Assembly: GCA_027064005.1 (NCBI GenBank)
Contig: JAMOQM010000027.1
Location: 1 to 60,707 of the forward strand
DNA length: 60,707 nucleotides
Source of the DNA: Candidatus Cloacimonadota bacterium
GTDB lineage: Bacteria; Cloacimonadota; Cloacimonadia; Cloacimonadales; JAMOQM01
Direction: 5' to 3'
The notes beneath the pieces were generated by a model. That model was not told the DNA's origin. It saw only the letters and a list, made by a program, of their open reading frames with translations, and did no database searches. Shown in pieces: positions 2,815 to 56,332 of this stretch. The first letter of the stretch is position 1. The number at the start of each line of letters is the position of its first letter. Position numbers and translations under genes: made by a program.

Positions 2815-4713
2815 ATGAAAACTTATAAACCAAAATGGATTGATAACCTTGAAAGAGAAATTCAAATAAGAAAAGCAATTATCTTAAATGGCAATATAAA
2901 CGATCTTTATTATAATTCGCAGAAAGATTCCTATCATTCAATTATTAACATAATATCAAGTATTGGGAATAAATATTATGATAGAATTATTAATTGGGAT
3001 CAATTCAGTGGTGTTTCTGATAAAGAGGGCATTAAAGAATTAGAAAGTAGTTTTCAAAAAGAAGAAGATTCAAGCTCTGCTAATAATGATGAATACGATA
3101 TGGGAAATGATAGCTATAATGGCACACAATCATTAAAGAGATCTTATGATAAACCAGAAGATTTTTTCCCTTTAATTTATCACACTTTTGTTGAGGAAAG
3201 TGACAAAAATAAACTCTTCATTATTGATTTCTCTCAATATATTTTTAATAATTCAAACACATTACCTCAAGATGAAAGAAAATGGCTTAATATTTTAGAT
3301 AAAATTCTTCGATATTCGGATACAGATATTACAAATATTGATAAAAAATCAAATTCAATTATTTTCTTATTCAATGGTCAAAACAGTTTACCATATTCTT
3401 TAATCAATAACAATCCGTTAATTACTTCAATTTCAATTCCATTCCCTGAAAGAAAAGATAGAGCATTCTTCGTAAAAAAGTACCTAAACTATTTTAAATT
3501 TGATAAAGAGCTAAACCAAAATAATGAGAACGATAATATTGTTATTGATGATTTTATTGATTCATTAGATGGATTTTGCATTAGAGAGATCAAACAATTA
3601 GTTAAACTATCAAAAAAATATAAAGATAAAGACCAAAACTCTCTTAATCCTAAAAAACTTATAAATTTATTTAAATACGGAATAACCAGCAGTCCTTGGG
3701 AGGATTTATCAAAAGAAAAATTAAAGACAATTCAAGAAACTTTAAAGAAAAGAGTAAAAGGACAAGATGAAGCAATTGAAAAGGTAAAAGATGTTATTGT
3801 TCGTGCTTTTACTGGACTATCTGGTATTCATCATTCAGCAAAAAAAAGTAAACCAAAAGGAATCTTATTTTTTGTGGGTCCAACAGGTGTTGGCAAAACT
3901 GAATTAGCAAAAAGTTTAGCTGAATTTCTTTTTGGAGATGAAGAAGCTTGTCTGCGTTTTGATATGTCTGAATACAATCATGAGCATAGTGACCAAAGAC
4001 TTGTTGGTGCACCTCCTGGTTATGTTGGTTATGAGAGAGGTGGTCAACTAACCAATGCTGTTAAGGAAAAGCCTTTTTCAATTATTTTGTTTGATGAGAT
4101 TGAGAAAGCTCACGGCAAAATTTTGGATAAATTTCTCCAGATATTTGAAGATGGCAGGCTAACAGATGGTAAAGGCGAGACAGTATCATTTTCTGAAAGC
4201 ATAATAATTTTCACATCAAATATTGGAACAACTTCAGAAGCATCAGTAAATCAGCAAATTAAAAAGAAAATTGATATGAATTATGATGAACTAAAAAATT
4301 ATTTTATCGAAAAAGTAAATACTCATTTTTCTGCACCTGATTCTGAAGGTGGATTAGGTAGACCTGAACTTTTAAATAGGATTGGCGACAACATTGTAGT
4401 TTTTAATTATATAAAAAATGAAGATATCATGTTTGAAATTACAAAAGCAAAGTTAAAACCTTTATATGAGTTTATTAAAGAAAAATATAAAATGGAAATT
4501 TCTTTTGATGATGAAGAGAAATCTTTAAGAGCACTTATTAAAAAAGTAAATAAAGAACATGGAGGTAGAGGTATCCTTAATGTTATTGAACCTAAAATAA
4601 TTGATCCTTTAGCAGATTTTATTTTTGAGAACAGCGAAATTTTTTATCCAGGTAGAAAAATAATCATCTCACAAATTGCTAACAAAACTTTATTTGAATT
4701 TGAGTTAAAATAA
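2815..4713 (+). CDS. ClpA/ClpB-like AAA+ ATPase with a degenerate N-terminal AAA-like half and an intact Clp D2-type module
   Basis: Walker A FFVGPTGVGKTELAK; Walker B IILFDEIEKAH; GAPPGYVGYERGGQLT; sensor-1 IIIFTSN; GRPELLNRI; sensor-2-like GGRGILN. The N-terminal ~330 aa keep AAA-like strands (LFIIDFSQ, ISIPFPERKDR) but have no P-loop. An alternative GTG start at 2809 overlaps the upstream stop. Confidence 0.8.
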   Translation: MKTYKPKWIDNLEREIQIRKAIILNGNINDLYYNSQKDSYHSIINIISSIGNKYYDRIINWDQFSGVSDKEGIKELESSFQKEEDSSSANNDEYDMGNDSYNGTQSLKRSYDKPEDFFPLIYHTFVEESDKNKLFIIDFSQYIFNNSNTLPQDERKWLNILDKILRYSDTDITNIDKKSNSIIFLFNGQNSLPYSLINNNPLITSISIPFPERKDRAFFVKKYLNYFKFDKELNQNNENDNIVIDDFIDSLDGFCIREIKQLVKLSKKYKDKDQNSLNPKKLINLFKYGITSSPWEDLSKEKLKTIQETLKKRVKGQDEAIEKVKDVIVRAFTGLSGIHHSAKKSKPKGILFFVGPTGVGKTELAKSLAEFLFGDEEACLRFDMSEYNHEHSDQRLVGAPPGYVGYERGGQLTNAVKEKPFSIILFDEIEKAHGKILDKFLQIFEDGRLTDGKGETVSFSESIIIFTSNIGTTSEASVNQQIKKKIDMNYDELKNYFIEKVNTHFSAPDSEGGLGRPELLNRIGDNIVVFNYIKNEDIMFEITKAKLKPLYEFIKEKYKMEISFDDEEKSLRALIKKVNKEHGGRGILNVIEPKIIDPLADFIFENSEIFYPGRKIIISQIANKTLFEFELK

Positions 4714-4716
4714 TTT

Positions 4717-5298
4717 ATGTTAAAACTAAATATAGCAAATATTATTAATTGCACAGAAGTTGAAGGTCCTGGTAAAAGATTTGCCATTTGGGTTCAAGGA
4801 TGTTTGAAAAGATGCAAAGGATGTTGCAATCCTGAAATGTTAGATTTAAAATCAAATCAAATTATCAGCATTCATAATGTTATTAAGGAAATTCAAAAAG
4901 CTGTAATAAATTATGAGATTGAAGGTATTACATTTATCGGAGGTGAGCCATTTTTACAAGCAAAAGGTTTATCCGAAATTGCTAAATATTGCAGAAAAAA
5001 TAATTTATCAGTAATGATTTTTTCAGGTTATACCTTAAAAGAAATTCAAAATGGTGAATTTGAAGAGTCTCAGAAATTACTTGATAATTGTGATATTCTT
5101 GTTGATGGGGAATTTGAAATAAATAACCTTGATTATGAAAGAAATTGGATTGGCTCCAAAAATCAAAAAATTCACTATTTATCAGATTTTTATTCAAAAG
5201 GTATAGAGTATTCAAAAGAATTCAAAGAAGGTTTAGAGTTTAGAATAATGAAAAATAATATTCAGTTTAATGGAGACCCTATTGGCTGTGAGTTGTGA
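4717..5298 (+). CDS. NrdG-like radical-SAM activating enzyme (4Fe-4S single-cluster family), orphan: no glycyl-radical partner is visible
   Basis: N-terminal GPGKRFAIWVQGCLKRCKGCCNPE (CxxxCxxC cluster next to the GPG motif), GITFIGGEP, and DILVDGEF, as in anaerobic RNR activases. The start is 3 nt after the AAA+ stop. Confidence 0.75.
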   Translation: MLKLNIANIINCTEVEGPGKRFAIWVQGCLKRCKGCCNPEMLDLKSNQIISIHNVIKEIQKAVINYEIEGITFIGGEPFLQAKGLSEIAKYCRKNNLSVMIFSGYTLKEIQNGEFEESQKLLDNCDILVDGEFEINNLDYERNWIGSKNQKIHYLSDFYSKGIEYSKEFKEGLEFRIMKNNIQFNGDPIGCEL

Positions 5299-5307
5299 TG
5301 AAAAATG

Positions 5308-5386
5308 CCTTATAACACACGTGCCCACAATAAGCAAGTAGTGAAGCAAGAAGATTCGTGGCACACTCCACTCATTATTGGTATAA
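5308..5386 (+). repeat. Copy A of a recurrent structured intergenic element (long form)
   Basis: Shared architecture with copies B, C and D: 5' box YTAACACA, a variable segment, CGTGGYA, the hairpin GTGG-loop-CCAC, then CATTAYWSS. The 5' CCTTATAA can pair with the 3' TTATTGG. Copies A and C share the insert AAGCAAG.AG..A.GCAAGA.GA. Confidence 0.6.
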
Positions 5387-5431
5387 AAAAGATATTAATA
5401 GCTACGGCTAAATAATCAAAAGGAGGAAAAT

Positions 5432-5551
5432 ATGGAATATTCAACACCTGAAGTAATTGCAGTAAGTCTTGATGATCAAGAAACAGTCGCTACTGCTTCG
5501 ATGTCTTGTGAAGATCCTGATGAAGATTGTAGTACATGGCGATGGAGTTAA
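5432..5551 (+). CDS. RiPP precursor peptide (39 aa, not in the ORF track): MEYSTPEVIAVSLDDQETVATASMSCEDPDEDCSTWRWS
   Basis: AGGAGG RBS at 5421-5426, then ATG at 5432. The acidic leader is followed by a C-terminal core with two Cys and a WRW motif. Its stop lies just before the radical-SAM/SPASM gene, and the maturase's listed ORF overlaps it. Confidence 0.65.
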   Translation: MEYSTPEVIAVSLDDQETVATASMSCEDPDEDCSTWRWS

Positions 5552-5556
5552 AAAAA

Positions 5557-7080
5557 ATGGGAGAAGAAAAATCTTCTCCCGTTTTAAATTATTCAAACAT
5601 ACTTGGAGAAATAAAAATGATGTTTAAATTAAGAAATGATTCTTTCATTCGGATTTTTGATAATTTTGGATATATTGTAAATCAACAAAAAAAGAATGAT
5701 AGAATTTATGATAAAATTGGAAGTATCTTCTTACAACAAATCTTGAGAGAACCACAAGAAATAATTACCGTTACAAAAAAAATTGTAGATAAATTTAACG
5801 ATGTTCCATTTAAGAAAGTTTATGCTGATTTTAAAAATTTTCTATCGGAGTTAGAGAGGAATTATTTTATATTGACTGCTAATTCTTTGAATGAACTTAA
5901 CAAAAAAGAAGCCAACCATGAAGAAAATATTGATAACTTCTCGAATAAGTCATTGATTGGATCCAAAAGTCCTAAACTTGAAAGCACTAAAACTTTCTTA
6001 AATAAGTATTTTTTTACAAATCCTACAGTTTTTGCTCTTCAAATAGAATTAACAACATTTTGTAATGAACATTGTTTGCATTGTTATATTCCGCAAAAAT
6101 ATAGAAATACATTACTCACTTATAAGAGTATTTGTGGTATCCTAGATCAAGCAAGAGATATGCAAACTCTTGCTGTATCCTTTTCAGGTGGCGAACCAAT
6201 GTCTCATCCTGATTTTATTAAGATATTAGAGTATGCGAGAGAAAAAGATTTTTCTATTACTATCTTAAGCAATTTGACATTATTAAATACAGAAATTTTA
6301 GAAACGTTGAAAAGAATTAATGTTAACCAAATACAAGTCTCATTATATTCAATGACACCAAAAATCCATGATTCTATTACAAAGATTGCGGGCTCTTTTA
6401 GTAAAACCTATAATGCTATTAAATCATTAATCAAAAATAATATTCCTCTTCGAATTAGCTGTCCATTAACAAAACTCAACTACATATCTTACAAAGAAGT
6501 ATTACAATTTGGGCAAAAAAACAATATTAAAGTTGATACAGATTTTACTATTATGGCAAGATCCGATTATAGTACAGACAACCTTCAATTCAGATTGACT
6601 TCAGAAGAAATTCAGACAGTATTACATGATATTTTTATTTATAACAGCAAATACACACAATCTTTACTGAAATACAAACCTTATTCTGTTGAAGAAAAGC
6701 AACAAGATAACGAACGGCCACTTTGTGGTGTTGGATTTAATAAAATTGCTATATCTAGTTCAGGAAATGTCATTCCTTGTGCAGGATGGCACAACCTTAA
6801 ACTAGGGCATATTGGTGATGATAAACTTTTAGATATTTGGACTAATTCTTTTCATTTAAATAATATTAGAAAGTTAAAACAAAAAGACTTTTCAGAATGC
6901 GTTAATTGTGAAGCAAAGAAATACTGTTCTATATGTCTATTAAGAAATTTTAATGAATATAATGGAGATATGTTAAAGTTTAATAAAATTCAGTGTGAGG
7001 TAGCATTTCAGACAATGAATACTGCAAAAGAATTATTTTTTGATAAAAATATTCATTTTGAAGAGCGACTGGACATGTAA
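5557..7080 (+). CDS. Radical-SAM/SPASM peptide maturase with an N-terminal PqqD-like RiPP-recognition (RRE) region
   Basis: Radical-SAM motif ELTTFCNEHCLHCY plus SFSGGEP. SPASM signature CGVGFNKIAISSSGNVIPC ... CVNCEAKKYCSIC ... CEVAF. The N-terminal FKLRNDSFIRIFDNFGYIVNQ is PqqD-like. The listed start at 5536 overlaps the precursor. ATG 5557 and ATG 5617 both follow a GGAG. Confidence 0.85.
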   Translation: MGEEKSSPVLNYSNILGEIKMMFKLRNDSFIRIFDNFGYIVNQQKKNDRIYDKIGSIFLQQILREPQEIITVTKKIVDKFNDVPFKKVYADFKNFLSELERNYFILTANSLNELNKKEANHEENIDNFSNKSLIGSKSPKLESTKTFLNKYFFTNPTVFALQIELTTFCNEHCLHCYIPQKYRNTLLTYKSICGILDQARDMQTLAVSFSGGEPMSHPDFIKILEYAREKDFSITILSNLTLLNTEILETLKRINVNQIQVSLYSMTPKIHDSITKIAGSFSKTYNAIKSLIKNNIPLRISCPLTKLNYISYKEVLQFGQKNNIKVDTDFTIMARSDYSTDNLQFRLTSEEIQTVLHDIFIYNSKYTQSLLKYKPYSVEEKQQDNERPLCGVGFNKIAISSSGNVIPCAGWHNLKLGHIGDDKLLDIWTNSFHLNNIRKLKQKDFSECVNCEAKKYCSICLLRNFNEYNGDMLKFNKIQCEVAFQTMNTAKELFFDKNIHFEERLDM

Positions 7081-7118
7081 CTTTTCTAATAGAATAGTTT
7101 TCTGAAAAATCATTGTTA

Positions 7119-7183
7119 TTAACCGGTAACACAGCTATCCGTGCCTATCGGCGTGGTAGCTGCCACCCATTACACCCGATTAA
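7119..7183 (+). repeat. Copy B of the recurrent structured intergenic element (short form)
   Basis: TTAACCGGTAACACA ... CCGTGCC-TATC-GGCGTGG ... GTGGTAGCTGCCAC CCATTACACCCGATTAA. The ends are complementary, and the inner helix keeps pairing through G-U wobbles relative to copy D. Confidence 0.6.
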
Positions 7184-7222
7184 TTTTTTTATATTATGGA
7201 ATTAAATGAAAGGAGGAATTAA

Positions 7223-10102
7223 ATGAAAAGAATTTACTTAAATACAATTATGGGGATACAATTTTTATTATTATGTTCGCAACTATTTTCTATCACATTT
7301 GCCGAGCGACAAATTGTTGACTTTCCTAATATTACAAATCCCAATTTCACTATTTCGTGTGATTTGGATAATAATGGATTTTCTGATGCAATTTCAGCTT
7401 CTCTTGATAATAAGCTTGTTTGGTTTCCTAGAACGAATAGCCAAATTGATGATAGTATTGAGGAAGAAATTGTAATTGCTGAACTTCCTGCGAATATGGG
7501 TGAAGTTACAGAAATTAAATGTGCTGATTTTGATGATGATGATGATTTGGATCTTTTAGTTGCTTCGGAATCTAAGTTATATTTAGTTGAAAATATAGAT
7601 AGTTGCGATAGTTTTGTTTTGCATTTGATACAATCATTTGAGACAGAAGTAAAGCAAAATTTTGATATTGGAGACTACAATTCCGATGGCTTAACAGATT
7701 TTATTTTAGCACGAGGAGAAGAAGAATCTACAATTAATATTTTTTTGAATACAAATAATTTAACTTTTTCACAAACACAAATTGCAGGAAATGGTATTCC
7801 GCTTGTAATATCTTATGATAAAGATAATGATGGAGATTTGGATTTGTTTGCAAATTGCAATGGATTCAATTATTTGGAAAATGTTGGTGGAGATTCGTTA
7901 TTTGTAATCACTGACACTCTTTCTACTGAAATGAAAAATGCTCAAATTATTGATTTTGACAATGATGGCAATATTGATATTGCCGGAATAATTAATGATG
8001 AAGAATTACATTTTGGCTGGATTGAAAACAATGATGATTCTTTCTCGGAATTTGAGATTTTATTTATTCCTGAACCATTTACTCAAATGAAAATTGTCAA
8101 TTCAGATTCAGATGATGATTACGAGATTTTCTTTATCAAAAATGTCGATTTATTTTATTATGACTACATTTCTGAAAATAATTATGAATTTGTTGATATT
8201 GGCATTTATACATCCACATTTGTTAATGACAGCTATGTTTCTTTTTTTGATTTTGCTGATTTTGATAATGATAACGATATTGACATTTTAATTTCATTTT
8301 CCGGAGGGGAATTTAATTTTGATCATAGATTTTTGGGTATTTGTGAAAATGTGAACGGTTTGTTTGGGAATGAGCATATTTTTAACCCTAGCTTTACACA
8401 ATCACCAATAGTTACATCTTTTGATATAGATTGTGATTCTGATTTGGATTTACTCATGGTAAATGGACAAAATATTTATTGGTCTAGAAAAAACGGTGCT
8501 GAATTTGACAAAGTCAAGATTTTGTATCATGCAGAAGATATTGTGAGATGGATTACGATAAGGGATATAAATTTTGACGGAAAATCTGATATTATTCTTA
8601 TGTTTGAAGATTATCCTTCAGATGGAGATTATAAAGTTTTGCTTAATAATTCTGATGGAGAAACAGATTTTTCTCTTCAACCTTTGAATAATATAGGAAT
8701 TGAGTATTCCAAAAGTTACGATTTCATTGATTTGGATCAGGATAATGACCTTGATTTTATCTGCATCAAAGGTGAAAACAACCGGCTTTATTGGAGTGAA
8801 AATCTTGGAAATTATACTTTTGGGAATTCAGAACTTTTATTACCGAATCAAGAACATATTGTTCGCTTTAAATTCACCGATATAGATAATGATGGAGATT
8901 TAGATTTATTAGCCGGAACCGAATTTAATTATAGTAACCGTTTTATATTTATTGCTACAAATAATAATTTAAATTTTACTATAACAACCAATTTTCCTGA
9001 ATTACCAGCCAGACCAAAAGCATTCTACTATGAGGATTTGGATAATGATGGAAATTATGAACTAATCGTTCATGTAGATGGATATAGTGAAATGCTTTAT
9101 ATCTATAAGAACATTTCTGATAATTTTCAAGATTATGAACTTTACATTTTGAATACGAACACAAACTGGGCTCATGGAATTAGGATGATAAGATTTGCAG
9201 ATTTGGATAATGATGGAGATAAAGATCTAATTGCAGGAAGAAGTTACTATGAAGAACAATATTCCGAATTAGCAATTTTGGTTTGGACAAATAATCAATC
9301 CGAATCATACTTTGATGAAAGCCATTTAGCTTATCCGCTTTATCATGAAAGAGCTATAGGTCTAAGGTATATAAATATTGCCGATTATAATAGCGATGGT
9401 AAACAAGATATTTTTTGCTATATTTATCGCCAATGGGATGAATTTTCTCAAAGTGAGTGGGATTATTATCTAAATACATCAACTTCTTTCCAAAACTTCC
9501 CAAGTTCGTTTGAATTGATGTTTCCACAAAATTATGCTGAAAATTTACCTACAAGACCCGAATTTATTTGGACAGCTTCAACAGATAACGATCCTAACGA
9601 CTTTGTCGAATATCAAATTGAAATTGCAACTGATAGCTTATTCAATGAAATTGTATTTTCCGAAAGTGAAATCAGTGATACACTTTTTATCATGCCAAAT
9701 AATTTGAGTACCAATACTCAGTATTTTTGGAGAGTAATCGCAGAAGATACTACAGGAAATCAAGCTATATCGGATTTTTTCACATTTTCAACAGGAAATG
9801 TTACTTCAAATTCTGAAGAAATAATTCTGACAAAAACAGAATTAAAAGGTAATTATCCAAATCCATTCAACCCAACTACAACAATAAAATTTTCAGTTAA
9901 AAAGAATGAGGTTGGAAAATTATCTATTTACAATGTAAAAGGGCAAATTGTAAAAACATTCGCTGAATTTTCCGAAGGTGACCATTCGGTTATTTGGAAT
10001 GGGAAGAATAATCATGGAGAAGAAGTTAGCTCCGGAATTTTCTTCTATAAACTTCAAACCAAATTTTATCAGAAAATAAAGAAAATGATTCTGTTGAAAT
10101 GA
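7223..10102 (+). CDS. Secreted FG-GAP/VCBS-repeat protein with an Fn3-like module and a T9SS C-terminal sorting domain
   Basis: AGGAGG RBS and a signal peptide. At least 12 Ca-binding-like DxDxDG repeats (ADFDDDDDLDLL, YDKDNDGDLDLF, TDIDNDGDLDLL and others). C-terminal GNYPNPFNPTTTIKF...GIFFYKL...KKMILLK. Confidence 0.85.
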   Translation: MKRIYLNTIMGIQFLLLCSQLFSITFAERQIVDFPNITNPNFTISCDLDNNGFSDAISASLDNKLVWFPRTNSQIDDSIEEEIVIAELPANMGEVTEIKCADFDDDDDLDLLVASESKLYLVENIDSCDSFVLHLIQSFETEVKQNFDIGDYNSDGLTDFILARGEEESTINIFLNTNNLTFSQTQIAGNGIPLVISYDKDNDGDLDLFANCNGFNYLENVGGDSLFVITDTLSTEMKNAQIIDFDNDGNIDIAGIINDEELHFGWIENNDDSFSEFEILFIPEPFTQMKIVNSDSDDDYEIFFIKNVDLFYYDYISENNYEFVDIGIYTSTFVNDSYVSFFDFADFDNDNDIDILISFSGGEFNFDHRFLGICENVNGLFGNEHIFNPSFTQSPIVTSFDIDCDSDLDLLMVNGQNIYWSRKNGAEFDKVKILYHAEDIVRWITIRDINFDGKSDIILMFEDYPSDGDYKVLLNNSDGETDFSLQPLNNIGIEYSKSYDFIDLDQDNDLDFICIKGENNRLYWSENLGNYTFGNSELLLPNQEHIVRFKFTDIDNDGDLDLLAGTEFNYSNRFIFIATNNNLNFTITTNFPELPARPKAFYYEDLDNDGNYELIVHVDGYSEMLYIYKNISDNFQDYELYILNTNTNWAHGIRMIRFADLDNDGDKDLIAGRSYYEEQYSELAILVWTNNQSESYFDESHLAYPLYHERAIGLRYINIADYNSDGKQDIFCYIYRQWDEFSQSEWDYYLNTSTSFQNFPSSFELMFPQNYAENLPTRPEFIWTASTDNDPNDFVEYQIEIATDSLFNEIVFSESEISDTLFIMPNNLSTNTQYFWRVIAEDTTGNQAISDFFTFSTGNVTSNSEEIILTKTELKGNYPNPFNPTTTIKFSVKKNEVGKLSIYNVKGQIVKTFAEFSEGDHSVIWNGKNNHGEEVSSGIFFYKLQTKFYQKIKKMILLK

Positions 10103-10160
10103 TTGGGGTAACAAAGCAATCCAAGCCCAATGAGCCAACAGGTTCTCAACTGTCCGATTC
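10103..10160 (+). repeat. Possible degenerate fifth copy (E) of the intergenic element
   Basis: GGGGTAACAAAGCAATCC..GCC...TCCGATTC resembles the 5' half and 3' tail of copy B. It lacks the GTGG-loop-CCAC hairpin. It sits directly after the FG-GAP gene stop. Confidence 0.25.
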
Positions 10161-10409
10161 AGATGTTGATGATATGGAAATTTTTTTTGATAATATGATT
10201 TAACTTTTGATTTACCCTCTGCTGCTGCATCTGTTATAAAAAATCGAGCAACAAATGAAGGAAAGAATGAATACTAAAAGGTGGTAGAATTTTAGATGAT
10301 TACGAATAAATGATGTTGTAATAATACCCCAAATTTCTTTTATTTGACATAAATTAAGTTTTCAAAGTTATGTTAAGAAGTTTTAAAATAATTATGAAAG
10401 GATTGAATA

Positions 10410-11237
10410 ATGAAAAGTAAAAAGATAAATGTGCAAGATATTGAAATAAATATAACTTCAATAAATGATGAAGATTACATTTCACTAACAGATATGTTAA
10501 AAGCTAAAGATGGTGATTTTTTTATTTCTGATTGGCTTAGAAATAGAAATACTGTTGAATTTCTTGGCATTTGGGAACGTATCTATAATCCAAATTTTAA
10601 TTATGGCGAATATGCCACAATTAGAAATCAGGCAGGCTTGAATAGTTACAAAATCAGTGTAAAAGAATGGACTGCTAAAACGAATGCAATTGGTCTAAAA
10701 GCAAAAGCCGGGCGATATGGCGGAACTTACGCTCATAAAGATATAGCATTTGAATTTGGTATGTGGATCAGTCCGGAGTTCAAGATATATTTAATCAAAG
10801 AATTTCAACGTTTAAAAGAACAAGAACAAAAACAACTCGGTTGGGATATTAAACGTAATCTAACTAAGATCAATTACAGAATTCATACAGATGCAATAAA
10901 AGAAAATCTAATTCCAAAAGAATTAACGGTAAAGCAAATGAGTATTATTTATGCAACAGAAGCTGATATTTTAAATATGGCTCTTTTCGGTAAAACAGCA
11001 AAACAATGGCGGGATGAGAATCCAAATAAAAAGGGAAATATCAGAGATTATGCCAATATTTCTCAATTAATATGCCTTTCTAATCTTGAAAATTTGAATG
11101 CACATTTTATCTACGAATCAATTGATCAAAGTGAAAGACTTAAGAAATTAAATTTAATAGCAATTTATCAAATGAAACTTTTGGTATTAGATAAAAACGT
11201 TGAAAAGCTTGAGATACAATCGAAAACTAAAAAGTAA
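10410..11237 (+). CDS. KilA-N domain DNA-binding protein
   Basis: ISLTDM...WLRNRNTVEFLGIWE...GRYGGTYAHKDIAFEFGMWISPEFKIYLIKEFQRLK is the conserved KilA-N family core common in FCB bacteria and their mobile elements. Confidence 0.8.
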   Translation: MKSKKINVQDIEINITSINDEDYISLTDMLKAKDGDFFISDWLRNRNTVEFLGIWERIYNPNFNYGEYATIRNQAGLNSYKISVKEWTAKTNAIGLKAKAGRYGGTYAHKDIAFEFGMWISPEFKIYLIKEFQRLKEQEQKQLGWDIKRNLTKINYRIHTDAIKENLIPKELTVKQMSIIYATEADILNMALFGKTAKQWRDENPNKKGNIRDYANISQLICLSNLENLNAHFIYESIDQSERLKKLNLIAIYQMKLLVLDKNVEKLEIQSKTKK

Positions 11238-11256
11238 TTATTGATTTAATGTTGTG

Positions 11257-11337
11257 AATAAGTCTGTAACACATTTACTCGCCAAGCAAGAAGAAACGCA
11301 AGATGAACGTGGCAGTGTCCGCCATTGCACCTATTTA
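11257..11337 (+). repeat. Copy C of the recurrent structured intergenic element (long form)
   Basis: AATAAGTCTGTAACACA ... GCCAAGCAAGAAGAAACGCAAGATGAACGTGGCAGTGTCCGCCATTGCACCTATTT. Same boxes and end complementarity as copies A, B and D. Confidence 0.55.
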
Positions 11338-11395
11338 AAGCAAACTTGTCATCCCCCCGATATTTTTCAAACAACACAAGCAAATTGTGTAGTAG

Positions 11396-11459
11396 AACAA
11401 TCTGCCAGATTGTTAAATAAATCCGCAAATTACCAAGTAGCACAATCTGCCAGATTGTT
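11396..11459 (+). repeat. Two copies of a ~35-nt direct repeat, each holding the palindrome ACAATCT-GCC-AGATTGT, spaced 45 nt apart
   Basis: Palindromes at 11397-11413 and 11442-11458. The flanks also repeat (GTAG.ACAATCTGCCAGATTGTT.A.TAATCC). Confidence 0.7.
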
Positions 11460-11494
11460 TATTAATCCTCAACCTGTTAAAATATTCTTTGATA

Positions 11495-11540
11495 GTAGAG
11501 ACGCCCAATTTGGGCGTCTCTACTATTTCGATTTTTTTTG
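11495..11540 (+). terminator. Rho-independent terminator
   Basis: Perfect 13-bp stem GTAGAGACGCCCA / TGGGCGTCTCTAC with loop ATT, followed by a T-rich tail (TATTTCGATTTTTTTT). Confidence 0.75.
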
Positions 11541-11623
11541 GGAGAATGGAAGTTTGAAACAAAAATCTTGACCTAGAATTCGGAGAAAAATGAATGAAGA
11601 AAAATATTCGGAATTGAGGGATT

Positions 11624-12673
11624 ATGGAAAAATATGAAGAATTATATAATAAAGTGAGTAAAATTGTAAATCCGGTTTATCTTGTTGGCGGATCTGTTCG
11701 GGATATTTTATTAGGAAGAGAACCAAAAGATTATGATTTTACAACGCCTATTTTTCCTGATGAAATCGAAAAATTGGTGCGAGCTGCCGGGAAAAGAGCT
11801 TATCTTATTGGTAAAAAATTTGGGACGATTGGTTGCAAGATAGATGGTGAATTTGTTGAAATAACAACTTTCAGACAGGAACAATATTCTAAAAATAATC
11901 GAAAACCGCAAGTTGATTTTGTTCAAAATATAGAAAATGATTTAAAACGTCGAGATTTTACAATTAATGCTATGGCTTGGAAAAATGGTGATTTAATTGA
12001 CTTGTTTGACGGGCAAAAAGATTTGAAAAATAAGATGATTCGAAGTGTCGGAAATCCTCAAGAAAGAATTAAAGAAGATCCACTCAGAATGTTAAGATGT
12101 GCCAGATTTATGTCTCAATTGAATTTTGAAGTCGAACCTAATTTGGAAGAAAAAATAAAGGAAAATTCTTTTAGGATTTTGTTTATCAGTCGTGAACGTT
12201 GGATGATGGAGTTGGATAAAATTTTGCTTTCTGAAAATCCCGAAATCGGGCTAAATTTTATGATGAAAAATAGGCTGTTTAACTATATCATCCCGGAATT
12301 ATCGTTACAATACAAATATGATCAAAACAGCCCTTACCATGATTTTGATTTGTGGATTCATACGCTAAAAACCGTTATGGCAACTCCAAAAGATATTATT
12401 TTAAGATGGGCTGCCCTGTTGCATGATATTGGAAAGCCATTTGTAAGAACAGATAAAACCGACCGAAGCAATTATATTCATCACGCTTTGTTGGGAGCGG
12501 AAATTGCCGATAAAATCGCTTATCAACTAAAATGGTCAAAAGATAGAAAAAAAGCTGTTCTTGAAATTGTGAAAAATCATTTGGATAAAGATTCGCCATT
12601 GAAAAAATATGATGATGTCTCAAAAAAGAATAAATTTCAAGTTCAAACAGGTGAATCTCAAAATAAACTATAA
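11624..12673 (+). CDS. cca: tRNA nucleotidyltransferase (CCA-adding enzyme / poly(A) polymerase family) with an HD domain
   Basis: GGSVRDILLGREPKDYDFTT, RRDFTINAMA, EDPLRMLRCARF, and the HD region LLHDIGKP. Confidence 0.8.
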   Translation: MEKYEELYNKVSKIVNPVYLVGGSVRDILLGREPKDYDFTTPIFPDEIEKLVRAAGKRAYLIGKKFGTIGCKIDGEFVEITTFRQEQYSKNNRKPQVDFVQNIENDLKRRDFTINAMAWKNGDLIDLFDGQKDLKNKMIRSVGNPQERIKEDPLRMLRCARFMSQLNFEVEPNLEEKIKENSFRILFISRERWMMELDKILLSENPEIGLNFMMKNRLFNYIIPELSLQYKYDQNSPYHDFDLWIHTLKTVMATPKDIILRWAALLHDIGKPFVRTDKTDRSNYIHHALLGAEIADKIAYQLKWSKDRKKAVLEIVKNHLDKDSPLKKYDDVSKKNKFQVQTGESQNKL

Positions 12674-52129: not shown

Positions 52130-52838
52130 TATTTTTTCCCTTCATTATTAGATTGTAGTTTATTGTAAATATTTTTTATTAATTTGTTTTGCAAATTACG
52201 TTTATAAATTGCCATCATGTTTTGATTGATTCAGGTTAAAGACATTAAACTACTGAGTATAGTTATAGGAATTCAGGGTTTTACTTTTATTGTAAAAAGG
52301 GAAATGAAATGTTGATAAGATTGATAACGGTTTTGAAAAATTCTATTTGAGAAAAAGATTTGTCTTTATTATCAACAATTTCCAGCCGTTATGATGAATT
52401 ATTTTCGCATTAATAGTTGTAAAATTCCAAATGATATTTCCTTCTTAATCTGTTCAACAATATATTTCATCCCCTTTTTTCACCGCAAAGTTGTTCACCA
52501 TTTAGAAGCAATTACGATAAGAGATATTTTTTCTAAGGACTTATCAACATTCGAAAATTTTGCTTATTTGAAGAAATTACCTTTCCGATAATTGCTAAAA
52601 CATTAACCGAAATGAAGATTAAATCTGCCATTATAGAATTACGTGGTTTTCGCTTTTCAAATAAAAGGACAGGTATCTATTCTTATAAATTAATTTTTTG
52701 GAATTATCTTATTCAATTTATGGCTTTGGGTGGATTGGTTATCTTTTGTATTGTGTAAAAAATGAGTGATTAATAAAAAATGTTTTATAATATATAAAAA
52801 AGACTTTACAACTTTTTGTTAATATTCAAAATTTTATA

Positions 52839-52930
52839 CACTCCGAGTCTTTATCTTTAAGGAGAATTCTATGAGGAAAGACCGATGGGCTCAAAAGGAA
52901 ACTTTTGAACCTCCCACCTTTGGAAAGGAG
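52839..52930 (+). ncRNA. Candidate Moco/Tuco (molybdenum or tungsten cofactor) riboswitch in the aor leader
   Basis: CACUCCGAG ... GAGGAAAGAC ... GGGCUC, the hairpin CAAAAG-GAAA-CUUUUG (GNRA loop), then CCUCCCAC and AAAGGAG (SD). These are the blocks I recall as conserved in the Moco RNA motif. Not verified with a covariance model. Confidence 0.5.
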
Positions 52931-52940
52931 ATAAAAAAAA

Positions 52941-54761
52941 ATGGGAGGTTTTATGAGTTATTTATTAACAGACTCAAAAATTGCAAGAGTAAATCTATCG
53001 ACAAAAAAAATCACAATTGAAAAAATCAACATGGATTTAGCCAAAAAATATCTCGGTGGTCGTGGATATGGAAGCAAAATTCTTTGCGATGAAATCGATC
53101 CGAAAATTGATCCTTTAGCAAAAGAAAACAAGATTATTTTTGCTGATGGATTGTTGAGCGGATCTTTTGCTCCAACCGGTGGAAGATATATGGTCATTAC
53201 TAAAGGTCTTCTAACAGGTACAATCGCAAGTAGTAATTCAGGCGGTTATTTCGGTGCTGAATTAAGAAAATGCGGATTCTTTATGTTGATAATTGAAGGG
53301 AAAAGTGAAAAACCTGTTTATCTCGAAATTAAAAATGATGAAATTCAAATTAAAGATGCTACTGATCTTTGGGGATTGGATACATCTAAAACAACTGATT
53401 TGTTAAAAGAAAAAATCGGTGTAAAAACTGCTAAAGTTTCTTGTATCGGTCCTGCCGGTGAAAATCTGGTTAAGATTGCCGCAATTATTAATGATAAAGC
53501 AAGAGCTGCCGGAAGAACCGGTGTCGGTGCAATTATGGGATCGAAAAATCTTAAAGCAATTGTTGCTGCAGGTAATAAAAAAATCGAGATTGAAAACCTT
53601 GAAAAATTCCGAGAAGTAGTAAAAGACAAAATCAAAAAATTAAAAGAAAATCCTGTTACCTCGGAAGGATTACCAACATTCGGAACTAAAGTTTTGGACA
53701 ACATTATTAATTCAAGTGGAATGTATCCAACTAATAATTTTCAATTAGCAACGTTCAAAGATGTGGATGAAGTTAGTGGAGAAGCTTTAGTTGCAAAAAA
53801 ATATTTTGTGAAAAATACAGCTTGTTTTGCTTGTCCGATTGGTTGTGGTAGAAAAGTTGTTTTACCGGATGGTCACGAAGGTGAAGGTCCTGAATATGAA
53901 TCTGGTTGGGCTTTTGGTGCAGATTGCGGAGTTAATGATTTAATTGCTATCACAAAAGCTAATTTTTTATGTAATGAATTAGGATTAGACACGATTTCAG
54001 CCGGAACAACTATCGCTGCGGCAATGGAATTATTTGAAAAAGGTTATATCAAAAAAGAAGATTTTGGTGATGCTGTTGAACCAAAATTCGGAAGCTCCGA
54101 AGCTGTAGTATATTATACCAAAGCAATGGCTTATCGCGAAGGTCTTGGTGATAAAATGGCGGAAGGATCTTACCGAATGGCAGAAATGTTTGGTCATCCG
54201 GAATTATCGATGACTGTCAAAAAACAAGAAATTCCCGCTTATGATCCTCGTGGCGTTCAAGGTCAGGCATTGGAATTTGCAACTTCAAATCGCGGTGCTT
54301 GCCATGTTAGAGGCTATTTGATTTCTCCTGAAATTTTAGGATTGCCTGAAAAATTGGAGACCCAAACAACTGACGGTAAAGCAATGTGGGTAAAAATATT
54401 CCAAGATCTTTCCGCTACAATTGATGCTGCCGGAATGTGTTTGTTTACATCATTTGCTTTAGGTGCTCAAGATTATGCAGAATTACTATCCGCTGCTTTG
54501 TCATGGGATATTAGTGCTGATGATGTGATGAAGATTGGGGAAAGAATATGGAATCTCGAAAGAAAATTCAATTATGAAGCCGGAATTATGCCTGAAGAAG
54601 ATACGCTTCCTGCAAGATTCCTTAAAGAAGGACTTTCAGATGGACCTCAAAAAGGTGCGGTAGTTAAACTTCATATTACGCTTCCTGATTATTATAAACT
54701 CCGTGGTTGGAATCCTGATGGTACAATACCCGAGAGTAAATTAAAAGAACTTGAGATATAA
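52941..54761 (+). CDS. aor: Tungsten-type aldehyde:ferredoxin oxidoreductase
   Basis: N-terminal AOR domain (ARVNLSTKKI...YLGGRG), the 4Fe-4S ligand region ACFACPIGCGR, ATSNRGACHVRG, and DAAGMCLF. Confidence 0.9.
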   Translation: MGGFMSYLLTDSKIARVNLSTKKITIEKINMDLAKKYLGGRGYGSKILCDEIDPKIDPLAKENKIIFADGLLSGSFAPTGGRYMVITKGLLTGTIASSNSGGYFGAELRKCGFFMLIIEGKSEKPVYLEIKNDEIQIKDATDLWGLDTSKTTDLLKEKIGVKTAKVSCIGPAGENLVKIAAIINDKARAAGRTGVGAIMGSKNLKAIVAAGNKKIEIENLEKFREVVKDKIKKLKENPVTSEGLPTFGTKVLDNIINSSGMYPTNNFQLATFKDVDEVSGEALVAKKYFVKNTACFACPIGCGRKVVLPDGHEGEGPEYESGWAFGADCGVNDLIAITKANFLCNELGLDTISAGTTIAAAMELFEKGYIKKEDFGDAVEPKFGSSEAVVYYTKAMAYREGLGDKMAEGSYRMAEMFGHPELSMTVKKQEIPAYDPRGVQGQALEFATSNRGACHVRGYLISPEILGLPEKLETQTTDGKAMWVKIFQDLSATIDAAGMCLFTSFALGAQDYAELLSAALSWDISADDVMKIGERIWNLERKFNYEAGIMPEEDTLPARFLKEGLSDGPQKGAVVKLHITLPDYYKLRGWNPDGTIPESKLKELEI

Positions 54762-54823: not shown

Positions 54824-55099
54824 ATGATAAAAGTCAAATTTTTTACCTTATTAAGATTAATTGTGAAAATTAGAGAAGTTCAAATTGAGGCTGATAATAT
54901 TTGTGTAAAAGATTTTTTGCCTTTATGTGAAGAAAAAGTGAAAGTTAAATTTATTCATAAATTATTGGAAAACGGAAAATTAATTACCGGTACAATTATC
55001 CTTATCAATGGTAAAAATATTCATCATCTTGATAAAGAAAAAACTATAATTTAGGATGGTGATTTAGTTGAGTTATTTCCGCCAGGCGGTGGAGGATGA
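54824..55099 (+). pseudogene. moaD: MoaD/ThiS-like sulfur-carrier gene interrupted by an in-frame TAG (55052-55054)
   Basis: MIKVKFF... reads to TII-TAG-DGDLVELFPPGGGG-TGA. The post-TAG tail is the canonical beta-grasp C-terminus ending in GG. It overlaps the next ATG by ATGA. Confidence 0.6.
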
Positions 55100-55484
55100 T
55101 TAAATACGCCAATCTTTTCCAAAAAAACATCAATTTTTGGGGAGCTGATACTCAAGATATTTTGCGGAAAAGCTCAATTTTAATTGCCGGTTGCGGGGGA
55201 TTAGGTTCCGTAGTTTCGGAAAATTTGGTTAGAAGCGGAATTGGAAAATTAGTGTTAATTGATTATGATAAAGTTGATGTCTCAAATTTGAATCGACAGA
55301 TTTTGTTCGATCTGGATGATGTAGGAAGTCTTAAAACAGCTGTTACAAAAAGAAAATTGGAGGAATTATAAAAATGATAAAAGTAAAATATATACCATCG
55401 TTGTTAGCCCACCAAATAAGAGGAATAACAATAATTGATGATACACACAAGTTAGCGGTTATTAAAAAGGTGAAAAAGATATGA
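55096..55484 (+). pseudogene. moeB: Decayed MoeB/ThiF-family adenylyltransferase: a 91-aa N-terminal fragment plus a frameshifted 36-aa remnant
   Basis: ILIAGCGGLGSVVSENLVRSGIGKLVLIDYDKVDVSNLNRQ stops at 55371. The +1 frame then reads IKVKYIPSLL...ITIIDDTHKLAVI, which aligns with the E. coli MoeB segment DLVLDCTDNVAVR. After that the gene ends. Confidence 0.65.
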
Positions 55485-56047
55485 TAAAACATAAATTTGA
55501 TAGAAAAATATTTACATTTAGTTTGTTACTCAAAGACTTAGGTTTTCTTTTATATAAGTTTCCAAAAATAATTGGAGCATTGCGAAACGAAAAGATTAAT
55601 AAGGCATATATGGAAAAAATAATGACAGTTGTTACCGCTGTTAACGGTTGTACATATTGTACTTGGTTTCACGCAAAACAAGCTGTTTCAAGTGGAATTA
55701 GTGAAGATGAAGTAAAAAATATGTTAAAACTTCAATTTGATGCTGATGCGACAGACTTTGAAATGCTTGGATTATTATATGCACAACATTATGCTGAAAC
55801 AAATAGAAAACCAGACAAAGAAATGACTGATAAATTATTTGAATTTTATGGAGATAATACAGCAAATCATATTATTCTCATTATTCGAATGATTTTCTTT
55901 GGAAACTTGCAAGGTAATACGTTTGATGCCTTTTTAAGTAGATTAAAAGGTGATAAAGCAAAAAACAGTAATGTAATTTTTGAAACTATTTTCTTTGTAA
56001 TAAATGCTCCTATACTACTTCCTATTTTACCATTTATAAAAAAATAG
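55481..56047 (+). CDS. AhpD-like / carboxymuconolactone-decarboxylase family protein with a CxxC motif and a hydrophobic C-terminus
   Basis: AVNGCTYCTWFHAKQA is the AhpD-type CxxC helix. Confidence 0.6.
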   Translation: MIKHKFDRKIFTFSLLLKDLGFLLYKFPKIIGALRNEKINKAYMEKIMTVVTAVNGCTYCTWFHAKQAVSSGISEDEVKNMLKLQFDADATDFEMLGLLYAQHYAETNRKPDKEMTDKLFEFYGDNTANHIILIIRMIFFGNLQGNTFDAFLSRLKGDKAKNSNVIFETIFFVINAPILLPILPFIKK

Positions 56048-56265
56048 CGAAATTAATAATGACAAAAAACGAAATGCTAACAAAGGCTATACATAATTTT
56101 GGCAATATGCTTATATTGAAGTTTATAGTAATAAATAAAATTAGTAGAAAATTGAAATTAATCGTTTTAAAATCCCAAACTACGCATATCCCAACCGTGA
56201 ATAGCCATTTAACTAATTTAAATTATCTGAAAAAATTTAAAGAGAATGAAACTGATCTCTGAAAG

Positions 56266-56332
56266 AATAGGCATAACACAGTACTCCACTCCCGAAAAAA
56301 GGGCGTGGCAGTGCCACCCATTATACCGATTT
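56266..56332 (+). repeat. Copy D of the recurrent structured intergenic element (short form)
   Basis: AATAGGCATAACACA GTACTCCACTCCCG-AAAAAA-GGGCGTGGCAGTGCCAC CCATTATACCGATT. The ends are complementary (9 of 12 positions). Confidence 0.6.

Follow-up and report, generated by a model that had tools for sequence, protein, structure and literature searches.

Hairpin elements that follow accessory genes in Cloacimonadota are probably the recombination sites of an integron-like gene-capture system

Why should functionally unrelated genes, standing in a row on one strand, each be followed by a copy of the same imperfect hairpin? The question is raised by a 60.7-kb stretch of Candidatus Cloacimonadota DNA (hereafter the window), in which a hairpin element of 65-85 nt occurs in four copies (A, B, C and D) and one decayed copy (E), all on the plus strand, every copy beginning 6-45 nt past the stop codon of a co-oriented gene. 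The original prediction, made from the bare sequence, had compared this arrangement to an integron-like or CALIN-like cassette array. The copies lie where it had placed them, and the gene order is as it had claimed: an NrdG-like radical-SAM gene, A, a 39-aa precursor with a rSAM/SPASM protein, B, an FG-GAP T9SS protein, E, a KilA-N protein, C, twin palindromes, a terminator and cca. Copies were located with a covariance model, R1, trained on 45 copies, of which 41 came from other genomes and four from the window itself; its matches in the window therefore arise partly by construction. Run with filters off on the whole 60.7-kb window, R1 gave exactly four matches (A, D, C and B), the next match standing at E about 0.9; copy E gave no R1 match and keeps only its 5' arm GGGGTAAC, the rest having decayed. 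The features, in window positions, are as follows.

4717 to 5298, plus strand: NrdG-like radical-SAM activase gene (Pfam Fer4_12 and Radical_SAM)
5304 to 5386, plus strand: copy A, long type with purine-rich loop (R1 57.5 bits, E 4e-11; also found by regular expression); TAAC at 5313-5316, ATTA at 5374-5377, putative crossover between 5374 and 5375
5375 to 7169, plus strand: predicted cassette 1, from TTATTGG through the precursor and maturase genes, ending with the arm (CCGG-TAAC) and body of copy B
5432 to 5551 and 5536 to 7080, plus strand: genes of cassette 1, the 39-aa RiPP precursor and the rSAM/SPASM maturase, respectively (Pfam)
7118 to 7181, plus strand: copy B, short type (R1 25.6 bits); TAAC at 7127-7130, ATTA at 7169-7172
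7170 to 11324, plus strand: predicted cassette 2, now a fused unit, from TTACACC through FG-GAP, E and KilA-N, ending with arm and body of copy C
7223 to 10102 and 10410 to 11237, plus strand: genes of cassette 2, the FG-GAP/T9SS protein and the KilA-N protein, respectively (Pfam)
10103 to 10162, plus strand: copy E, decayed site; arm GGGG-TAAC (10105-10112) intact, body degenerate
11258 to 11336, plus strand: copy C, long type, last site of the array (R1 43.4 bits); TAAC at 11267-11270, ATTG at 11324-11327
11390 to 11540, plus strand: twin 17-bp palindromes and strong terminator hairpin
56265 to 56332, plus strand: copy D, solitary, short type (R1 49.8 bits)

The NrdG-like gene is the last of an upstream helicase/PIN/ClpA-like operon, which in locus L020 runs 5.5 kb past the start of our contig, and its unit ends in copy A. 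Further A-like copies lie on 8-20 contigs of runs X2 and X6, and C-like bodies on 7-8 more contigs of X6. Two neighbouring features that had been drawn into the same picture belong elsewhere. The twin palindromes and terminator after copy C are present as described, but they are a separate multi-copy repeat family outside the cassette system: the summed contig depth over 11470-11529 is about 1000-2200, compared with about 60 in the flanks and the genome, and the segment occurs on 8-10 contigs per run. Likewise, the zone of gene decay and insertion around copy D, to which that copy had been tied, is caused by two other repeat families and not by the hairpin element.

The element itself is present in at least 82 loci of Cloacimonadota genomes; a pattern scan returned 84 stretches, nearly all labelled Cloacimonadota, and R1 found 141 copies in 88 loci. 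Its placement is highly regular. Copies are all on one strand in each of the 34 multi-copy loci, the upstream ORF is co-oriented with the element in 108 of 110 cases (median distance from stop codon to TAAC, 18 nt), and the downstream ORF in 81 of 88. The description of the window copies as beginning in TAAC and ending in ATTA proved to be general, with TAAC in 130 of 132 copies and a core of ATTA in 125 (GTTA in 2, ATTG in 3); the TT is constant, and an A takes the place of attC's G. Sites range from 55 to 135 nt and share a body in which a 9-bp stem, CAGCTCCAC/GTGG(C)AGCTG, carries a bulged C and encloses a loop that varies from 4 to more than 100 nt; an unpaired CCAAACA comes after it. The bulged C in GTGG(C)AG, on the 3' arm, is seen in the consensus, in copy D and in L008, L014 and L016a, while a 5'-arm bulge occurs only in copies A and B. 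Many copies are solitary, and the sequence of the purine-rich loop is conserved, although a site serving recombination alone would not require this. The core is constant, whereas the arms differ between copies and have their pairing partners on the far side of the adjacent gene unit; a MITE or TIR transposon, which would have constant terminal inverted repeats and a direct target-site duplication, does not fit this pattern. Neither the size nor the sequence of the element fits a comparison with REP/RAYT systems (20-40 nt palindromes, GTAG, Y1 transposase).

A different kind of repeat deserves closer consideration, namely a dispersed structured repeat, either REP- or MITE-like or a 3'-UTR RNA of surface-protein genes, that has no dedicated recombinase and whose copies are exchanged by homologous recombination. 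Such a repeat would account for a highly conserved body, loop included, for the many solitary copies and for a cargo in which T9SS proteins make up 40% of the upstream genes. Copies B and D also fold well as plus-strand RNA, with G-U pairs in B and a fold of -19.3 kcal/mol (z -2.9) for D, and an RNA role could coexist with recombination. Two observations weigh against the cassette reading: with DNA parameters, single-strand folds of individual copies were no better than those of shuffled sequences, and because the stem is almost invariant in sequence, support from covariation is thin. Against the structured repeat, the terminal repeats of a MITE are constant, whereas here it is the arms that vary, and the element has no Rfam match: in the window, Rfam 15 gave none at gathering score, and a search with the composite element at E up to 10 gave only sub-threshold noise.

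Presence/absence polymorphism with breakpoints inside the element had been proposed as a test for every unit, and it was found at one junction. The same metagenomes contain three alternative upstream neighbours of the FG-GAP gene, all of them joined to it within copy B, at C(C)ACCCATTAC; no sample shows variation at A or E, and B is the only window junction shown to be polymorphic. The three left sides meet at 7163/7164. In runs X1-X4 contigs break at copy B with depth steps, the two other left sides begin at this same position, and the loose ends are identical to bodies in L016/L017 and L018. Locus L016 carries a methyltransferase and polysaccharide deacetylase unit, flanked by two element copies, in place of the rSAM unit, and L018 carries a 135-nt element copy at that position, upstream of FG-GAP. 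Cassette 1 is found in part of the population only (depth 22 vs 66 in X2) and is absent from the main X3 form. The FG-GAP gene itself is a single homogeneous contig in X2, and 3' of it five strain versions are alike except for SNPs and one 124-nt deletion. Because E has decayed, FG-GAP and KilA-N now act as one unit. Strain mixing within metagenome contigs is possible, and no circular cassette junction was seen.

The arms reveal how neighbouring copies are related. For 24 of the 46 consecutive pairs, the tail of one copy and the arm of the next are perfect complements over at least 5 nt beyond TTA/TAA, compared with 1.9% of random pairs (P = 2.6e-29), while the arm and tail of a single copy share a complementary run of at least 4 nt in only 11 of 129 copies. 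The 5' arm therefore complements the start of its own cassette and not the adjacent tail, which is the signature of an integron cassette. Clear instances are found in L101 (TTATGCCCAT/ATGGGCATAA and TTAGCGGTA/TACCGCTAA) and L016 (GTTATATA/TATATAAC). For the window, the arm CCGGTAA of cassette 1 forms 5 Watson-Crick and 2 G.T pairs with the start of that cassette, TTATTGG, and the arm GGGGTAA of copy E is the perfect complement of TTACCCC, the start of the FG-GAP unit in strain L016; the arm and tail of solitary copy D largely pair with each other (GG.ATAA / TTAT.CC). Gene-less cassettes of about 240 nt are common, and one such block is nested exactly between CATTA and (A/G)TTA, and the outer arm pairs with the tail that lies on its far side (L102 fold, z -6.2). 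A structured repeat predicts neither complementarity of this kind across 0.7-4 kb of unrelated sequence nor a gene-less unit nested exactly at TTA, nor would it explain arrays that start at a recombinase gene and an attI-like site, as described below. We therefore consider it very unlikely.

The genes carried between the sites are accessory in nature. A T9SS sorting domain is encoded by 32 of the 80 ORFs adjoining a site (40%), and other cargo includes Fic, Mrr, Schlafen/AlbA_2 or kinase proteins, in cassettes that are large (1-4 kb). BLAST clustering of the 308 neighbouring ORFs yielded few recurrent families, namely T9SS-tail proteins, tyrosine recombinases and Fic-type proteins, together with a few minor clusters, each of two or three ORFs and unannotated. 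No HUH/Y1 family was identified among the clustered ORFs near element copies, a few of whose small clusters are unannotated.

Which enzyme might move these units? A six-frame phmmer search of the window and of 10 kb of sequence upstream of it (L020) detected no tyrosine recombinase, so that the earlier statement that no integrase or transposase is present stands for this family, the one searched. Related genomes offer candidates. Six of the 88 element loci contain a tyrosine recombinase gene or what is left of one, always upstream of the first unit and co-oriented with the array. In the converse search, from recombinase to element, three Cloacimonadota recombinase loci had 2.5 kb or more of sequence downstream of the gene, and in every one of them the R1 matches lay only there, on the same strand. 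Counting these three with the six element loci, the array starts directly 3' of a tyrosine recombinase gene in nine loci, and in 9 loci a conserved stretch lies beyond the recombinase stop codon, with (A/G)TTA at its end (more fully, CATATGTTA or CAAAC(A/G)TTA), and may act as attI. The link between recombinase and site is thus one of co-location in other genomes. The best NCBIfam model for the recombinase is TIGR02249 'integron integrase' (214 bits, below the cut-off of 265), matched in two stretches with profile positions 180-232 skipped, and the best PDB match is VchIntIA (2a3v). Every array-head recombinase is without the I2 insertion, about 12 aa replacing IntI1 residues from about 200 to 255. 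Several of these genes are fragments or decayed, and at one locus the recombinase is paired with a second copy with altered catalytic residues.

These features leave room for the view that the cassettes are real but are moved by another enzyme, such as a HUH/Y1 hairpin-specific transposase or a cargo-encoded nuclease, with the IntI-like recombinase as a bystander. The recombinase is without the domain by which IntI reads the extrahelical bases of attC, many arrays, the window's included, have no recombinase nearby, and several recombinase genes have decayed. However, the recurrent families among the 308 neighbouring ORFs are few and none was identified as HUH/Y1, the TTA-flanked inserts fit a crossover of the tyrosine-recombinase type, and the recombinase is always at the upstream end, co-oriented and followed by a conserved site with the element's own (A/G)TTA core. 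We judge this explanation to be highly improbable.

The least probable of the explanations considered is a canonical integron array (CALIN) with true attC sites and a standard I2-bearing IntI elsewhere in the genome. The sites do resemble attC in the AAC of the 5' arm, the unpaired spacer, the imperfect stem and the variable loop, they lie 3' of co-oriented ORFs and show own-cassette complementarity, and a few copies even have GTTA. In canonical attC sites, the extrahelical bases are on the R''-L'' arm, which is the 5' arm of the gene-sense strand; the conserved bulge here is on the 3' arm of that strand. In addition, 125 of 132 copies have ATTA, not GTT, all array-head recombinases found are without I2 (TIGR02249 score 214 vs a cut-off of 265), and these recombinases are co-oriented with the cassettes. 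The original reading of an integron- or CALIN-like array is thus borne out by the polymorphism at B, the complementarity and the IntI-related recombinases with attI-like sites, while the ATTA core, the opposite-arm bulge and the missing I2 set the system apart from a canonical integron.

On balance, the element probably plays the part of attC in an integron-like gene-capture system found widely among Cloacimonadota. Such a system would be a variation on the integron principle and not a canonical integron; we found no description of one in the literature searchable for this analysis. The window contains a headless (CALIN-like) stretch of such an array with four sites, of which B is currently polymorphic in the population and E has decayed. 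The cassette would have the form 5'-TTA-N6-7 ... ORF(s) ... N'6-7-TAA-C-(body)-CA-3'. Excision as a circle would join its two ends, whereupon the variable arm (N'TAA) could pair with the cassette's own start (TTAN) to complete the folded site, which probably acts as a folded single strand. Recombination would take place between (A/G) and TTA, either site by site or between a site and the attI-like site (...CAAAC(A/G)TTA or ...CATATGTTA) directly 3' of the tyrosine recombinase gene at the array head, with a presumed cleavage position within CATTA. The recombination is presumably carried out by the array-head tyrosine recombinase, a close relative of integron integrases and XerA without the IntI-specific I2 insertion.

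Integrons are the classic bacterial gene-capture device, and the I2 insertion of IntI is held to enable the reading of folded attC sites. A system with the integron's operational hallmarks is nevertheless common in a whole candidate phylum, yet has an I2-less recombinase and a differently built site. Standard tools would therefore miss it, and IntegronFinder surveys have reported almost no integrons in the FCB group. The system provides a handle on two testable questions, namely the evolution of integrons from Xer-like enzymes and the means by which T9SS surface proteins and defence genes become diverse in uncultured anaerobes. It also accounts for Cloacimonadota assembly breaks at element repeats and for tandem unrelated accessory genes such as the window's RiPP/rSAM pair. 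A broader reading, to which as a whole we give even chances, is that cassette platforms with folded sites extend beyond I2-bearing IntI and that this is a sister system to the integron. It would be hosted by Cloacimonadota and probably by Marinisomatota, Bacteroidota and Ignavibacteriota, and would recombine mirror-image hairpins between (A/G) and TTA by means of an IntI/XerA-like recombinase that has no insertion and is in some cases accompanied by a catalytically altered paralogue. It would mainly shuffle T9SS surface proteins and defence genes, and its mobile gene-less cassettes may carry promoters. If true, this would reveal the origin of integrons from Xer-type recombinases, or a second way of building one.

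Among known systems, an 'integron-like' subgroup of simple tyrosine recombinases has been delineated (Smyshlyaev et al. 2021, PMC8138268), and insertion-less IntI relatives are therefore already on record as sequences, although that paper is not known to describe cassette arrays or sites for them. Among the XerA/XerC/XerD enzymes, XerA (PDB 5hxy, E 3e-40) resembles the recombinase about as closely as IntI does. Acinetobacter pdif modules are alike in that gene units are bounded by recombinase sites, but dif and pdif are 28-bp double-stranded sites with two 11-bp arms, whereas here the stem halves are 4 to more than 100 nt apart and the variable arms pair across the cassette. If our sites are counted as attC, the window answers to the definition of a CALIN (two or more sites within 4 kb of one another, and no integrase nearby): A and B are 1.8 kb apart, B and C 4.1 kb with the decayed E between them, and the integrase check covered tyrosine recombinases in the window and 10 kb upstream. 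The R'' box ending in AAC is found, while the attC R' box GTTRRRY, cut between G and TT, is not. Compared with integrons, the recombinase is without I2, below the integron-integrase cut-off and co-oriented with the cassettes, ATTA replaces GTT in 95% of sites and so puts a C.A mismatch into the terminal helix, the conserved bulge lies on the other arm, and the cassettes are 1-4 kb with 40% T9SS surface proteins, gene-less ones of about 240 nt being common. Integrons of the 'inverted' Treponema denticola type share with Cloacimonadota an integrase that reads in the same direction as the array, but these integrases carry I2 and their sites are detectable as attC. The closest likeness is to sedentary chromosomal integrons and CALINs such as the V. 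cholerae superintegron with its VCR. Both have co-oriented, promoter-poor accessory cassettes, lineage-specific, closely similar imperfect hairpins of 55-135 nt whose 5' arm has a constant AAC and whose 3' end has the crossover (here a predicted one) before TT, and cassettes whose first bases complement the 5' arm of their own site. Both also have a tyrosine recombinase and adjacent attI-like site at the array head (here in relatives, not in the window), frequent headless arrays, decayed integrase genes and strain-level cassette polymorphism.

The interval from the stop codon of an NrdG-like gene at 5298 to the start of cca at 11624 contains three gene blocks, all on the plus strand, separated by copies of an imperfect hairpin element, which confirms the original observation of functionally unrelated, co-oriented units divided by element copies. 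Each copy consists of a conserved body flanked by a variable arm, before TAA, and a variable tail, after TTA. Features common to the copies are a 5' (N)TAACA(C/A)A, an imperfect stem with the 3' half CGTGGCAG... and the tail CCACCCATTA. A covariance model of the element (R1) returned exactly four matches in the whole 60.7-kb contig, everything else having an E-value of at least about 0.9; these matches are partly by construction, as the 45 training copies comprised 41 from other genomes plus the window's own A to D.

Gene blocks and element copies in the window
Block 1, + strand: 39-aa precursor and rSAM/SPASM enzyme
Block 2, + strand: 959-aa FG-GAP protein with a T9SS sorting tail
Block 3, + strand: KilA-N protein
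5304-5386, + strand: copy A, R1 match
7118-7181, + strand: copy B, R1 match
10103-10162, + strand: copy E, only the 5' arm GGGGTAAC kept, the rest decayed
11258-11336, + strand: copy C, R1 match
56265-56332, + strand: copy D, R1 match

At the Rfam gathering score the element had no match in the window or in nine other loci, and an E-value scan of the composite element gave sub-threshold noise only. DNA folds of single copies (z from -1.7 to +1.1) were uninformative alone, while RNAalifold found no structure in the first MAFFT alignment because the bulges were misaligned in it. The window was also noted to have no integrase, and a six-frame phmmer search of it with IntI1 and XerD queries indeed found no tyrosine recombinase.

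Several other features of the window are distinct from the element. A palindrome (AACAATCTGCCRGATTGTT) and a perfect terminator hairpin at 11435-11529 form a separate multi-copy repeat, with a summed contig depth of 1000-2200 versus about 60 for the genome and 8-10 contigs per run, the flanks differing on each. Two further multi-copy repeats (55355-55455 and 56075-56200, depth up to about 2000) lie either side of a 188-aa ORF (55481-56047) that has a CxxC motif. The insertion comes after a ThiF/MoeB-like frame ending at 91 aa (55096-55371), and in a 7.2-kb contig from metagenome run X1 the two repeat parts are joined and the ORF is absent. The arrangement resembles a MITE-like element whose cargo is optional. 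At 52829-52946, a Moco/tungsten riboswitch (RF01055, 65.8 bits) overlaps the start of a 606-aa ORF (52941-54761). At the other end, the window begins inside a defence-like operon seen in a locus that extends upstream (L020 1-10000), where the first genes of the operon ending at copy A encode an S1/AAA_11/AAA_12 helicase of 1508 aa and a PIN_4 protein of 879 aa.

Strain variation shows where the array changes. The stretch is contained in 14 public metagenome runs, and Logan contigs of four of these were placed on 4700-12000. The contigs break at the 3' end of copy B with a step in depth (22 to 66 in run X2, about 9 to 26 in run X3), and in a close-up of the Logan contigs two further left sides meet the window sequence at C(C)ACCCATTAC (7163/7164). 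Matching assemblies, reached through members of the FG-GAP protein cluster, include one version (L016/L017) with a methyltransferase and polysaccharide deacetylase unit in place of the rSAM unit and its own element copy on each side, and another (L018) with a 135-nt element copy ahead of the FG-GAP gene. The depths of the three forms in X2, about 22, 19 and 34, compare with 66 for the FG-GAP gene, which forms one homogeneous contig there; the three forms are therefore alternatives before the same gene. From the 3' side of FG-GAP through E into KilA-N, all versions agree except for SNPs and a 124-nt deletion. The prediction that units would be present or absent with breakpoints inside the element thus held at B, with its three left sides. 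At A no alternative flanks were seen, and B is the sole demonstrably active junction in the window. No circular cassette junction was seen in the runs, all of which are represented by assembler contigs that hide rare forms. Synteny via cca was uninformative, the nearest species representative being only 54% identical and its neighbourhood different. The 124-nt deletion (window 10368-10493) takes out the start of the KilA-N gene in L018 and in some contigs from X2 and X3. Run X6 has highly multi-copy KilA-N-like sequences, followed by other element copies.

The element belongs to a family found across many genomes. A first strict pattern scan gave one true copy and eight chance matches in genome contigs and one true copy in metagenomes, and a pattern scan of viral contigs gave coding repeats only. 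A pattern drawn from the stem of two relatives retrieved 84 stretches from species-representative genomes, nearly all labelled Cloacimonadota, unevenly spread in that some MAGs give many contigs (about 18 from one) and often matching at contig ends. The consensus is gcTAACA(A/C)ACAGCTCCAC-[AGCCAAGCAAGAAGAGAAGCAAGAAGAG or a short loop]-CGTGGCAGCTGCCAAACATTA, and R1 recognises 141 copies, spread over 88 loci. The 34 loci with at least two full-length copies each have all of them on a single strand (chance 1.4e-14). Of the nearest upstream ORFs, 108 of 110 are co-oriented, with a median of 18 nt from stop to TAAC, as are 81 of 88 downstream ORFs. A T9SS sorting domain occurs in 32 of the 80 ORFs directly 5' of a copy, others of which encode Fic, Mrr, Schlafen/AlbA_2, SMC-like and kinase proteins.

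The variable ends of the copies delimit the gene units. Arm (5-7 nt before TAA) and tail (5-7 nt after TTA) differ from copy to copy, and within one copy they share a complementary run of at least 4 nt in only 11 of 129 cases. Between consecutive copies, the tail of one is perfectly complementary to the arm of the next over 5-7 nt in 24 of 46 pairs, compared with 1.9% of 20,000 random inter-locus pairs (P = 2.6e-29). It follows that every gene unit has an inverted repeat of its own at its ends, TTA-N...N'-TAA, with the conserved body after the 3' repeat. Integron cassettes are built alike (TTRRRY...RYYYAAC-body-G), and a circular cassette intermediate recombining at N|TT would be expected to yield such an own-unit inverted repeat. 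The same arrangement is seen in the window and its strain variants: the arm of copy L016b (TATATAAC) matches the tail of L016a (GTTATATA) and not its own adjacent tail, the arm of E (GGGGTAA) matches the FG-GAP unit start TTACCCC in L016, and between the arm of B (CCGGTAA) and the start of the rSAM unit, TTATTGG, there are 5 Watson-Crick and 2 G.T pairs. A candidate link between the tail of C and the arm of D, 45 kb apart, was rejected, the complementary run being 0 nt.

The same logic extends to a conserved block of about 240 nt, present in about 30 loci (L102, L029, L034, L052, L072, L093 and others) though with no copy in the window, that is bounded precisely by CATTA on one side and a second (A/G)TTA on the other. 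Pairing joins the outer arm to the tail past the block, as in L102 (2165-2420; CCGCTAA/TTAGCGG, fold z = -6.2), and the block start TTAAACAACAT pairs with ATGTTGTTTAA just 13 nt on. The closing helix of about 17 bp shows clear covariation, TAA(C/T)G-N5-GCGTGCCAC...GTGGCACGC-N5'-C(A/G)TTA. The block is in effect a cassette that has a large site but no gene. A TTGACT-N17-TATCAT motif inside it faces the next gene, and the block could be a mobile promoter or leader. A group II intron was considered and dropped, since the sole Rfam intron match is 2 kb off on the other strand and diverse ORFs begin about 225 nt after the block's first hairpin.

Candidate recombinases stand at the head of the arrays. 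Six-frame phmmer searches of the 88 element loci, with IntI1 and XerD queries (the former 100% identical to annotated intI1), found tyrosine recombinases or their remnants in 6, in every case upstream of the first gene-element unit and co-oriented with it. A reciprocal search from the L053 recombinase showed that all three Cloacimonadota relatives with at least 2.5 kb downstream have R1 matches downstream on the same strand and none upstream. Among NCBIfam families, TIGR02249 'integron integrase' ranks first, level with a XerA-type model; the TIGR02249 match is below cut-off and skips profile positions 180-232. In the alignment to IntI1, residues ~200-255, the IntI-specific insertion (I2), are reduced to about 12 residues, the C-terminal SPLD motif being kept, and among solved structures the closest are VchIntIA (2a3v) and XerA (5hxy), each with an E-value near 1e-40. 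One head (L053 5508-7516, minus strand, equal to L107 7001-8074 and upstream) has two tandem IntI-like genes, and the upstream copy (289 aa), in which conserved catalytic-box positions are changed (LKNSFAVHLL, LGQKH), may be an inactive partner subunit. In another locus (L080 1675-3071, minus strand) an 86-aa ORF (2325-2585), GIY-YIG-like by eye (MFYTYVLLSLKDYELYTGYTKDLKNRFNQH), splits the array-head recombinase gene in two.

Directly 3' of the recombinase stop codon lies a conserved region with internal repeats, ending in CATATGTTA| (type 1, four loci) or GTCGGGGATACAAAC(A/G)TTA| (type 2, five loci, one labelled Neomarinimicrobiota), after which comes a typical cassette start such as GCAGCAAC. 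The type 2 region and the element's 3' end have CAAAC(A/G)TTA in common, much as attI and attC share a core. In the contig labelled Neomarinimicrobiota (L133 2690-2830), the same recombinase C-terminus (SPLD) occurs together with a type 2 attI-like region ending CAAACGTTA. From this anatomy and co-location, we infer both the link between recombinase and sites and a single-strand mechanism.

Bacteroidota and Ignavibacteria also have relatives of the recombinase (40-52% identity), and these very often lie near a contig end on the downstream side. In a Vicingaceae (Bacteroidota) contig (L123 9116-10854), three 49-nt hairpins TAACA...CGTTAGCA, about 850 nt apart, lie downstream of a recombinase that is 48% identical and, from its aligned length, too short to contain the IntI-specific insertion. 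The hairpins and the insertion-less recombinase therefore indicate that this genome has such a system too, its core being GTTA, and the system may reach well beyond Cloacimonadota.

Integrons are rare in the FCB group according to the IntegronFinder 2.0 survey, in which Cloacimonadota go unmentioned, and a passage of Smyshlyaev et al. 2021 (PMC8138268) describes the insertion as not fully conserved within the 'integron-like' recombinase subgroup. Full-text searches of the literature for Cloacimonadota or Cloacimonetes together with integron, attC or gene cassettes returned nothing relevant. The system shares with integrons the AAC in the 5' arm, crossover at a 3' N|TT, own-cassette complementarity, variable loop length, co-oriented arrays behind ORFs, strain polymorphism, a head recombinase with an attI-like site, headless arrays and decayed integrases. 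It differs in that the recombinase has no I2 insertion and the G of GTT is replaced, the element having ATTA in 125 of 132 copies. The bulge side also differs: in canonical attC sites, read on the gene-sense strand, the extra bases belong to the 5' arm, while here a conserved bulged C is on the 3' arm. Because of these shared and differing features, together with the literature, we file the system as a new variant of the integron principle rather than as an integron.
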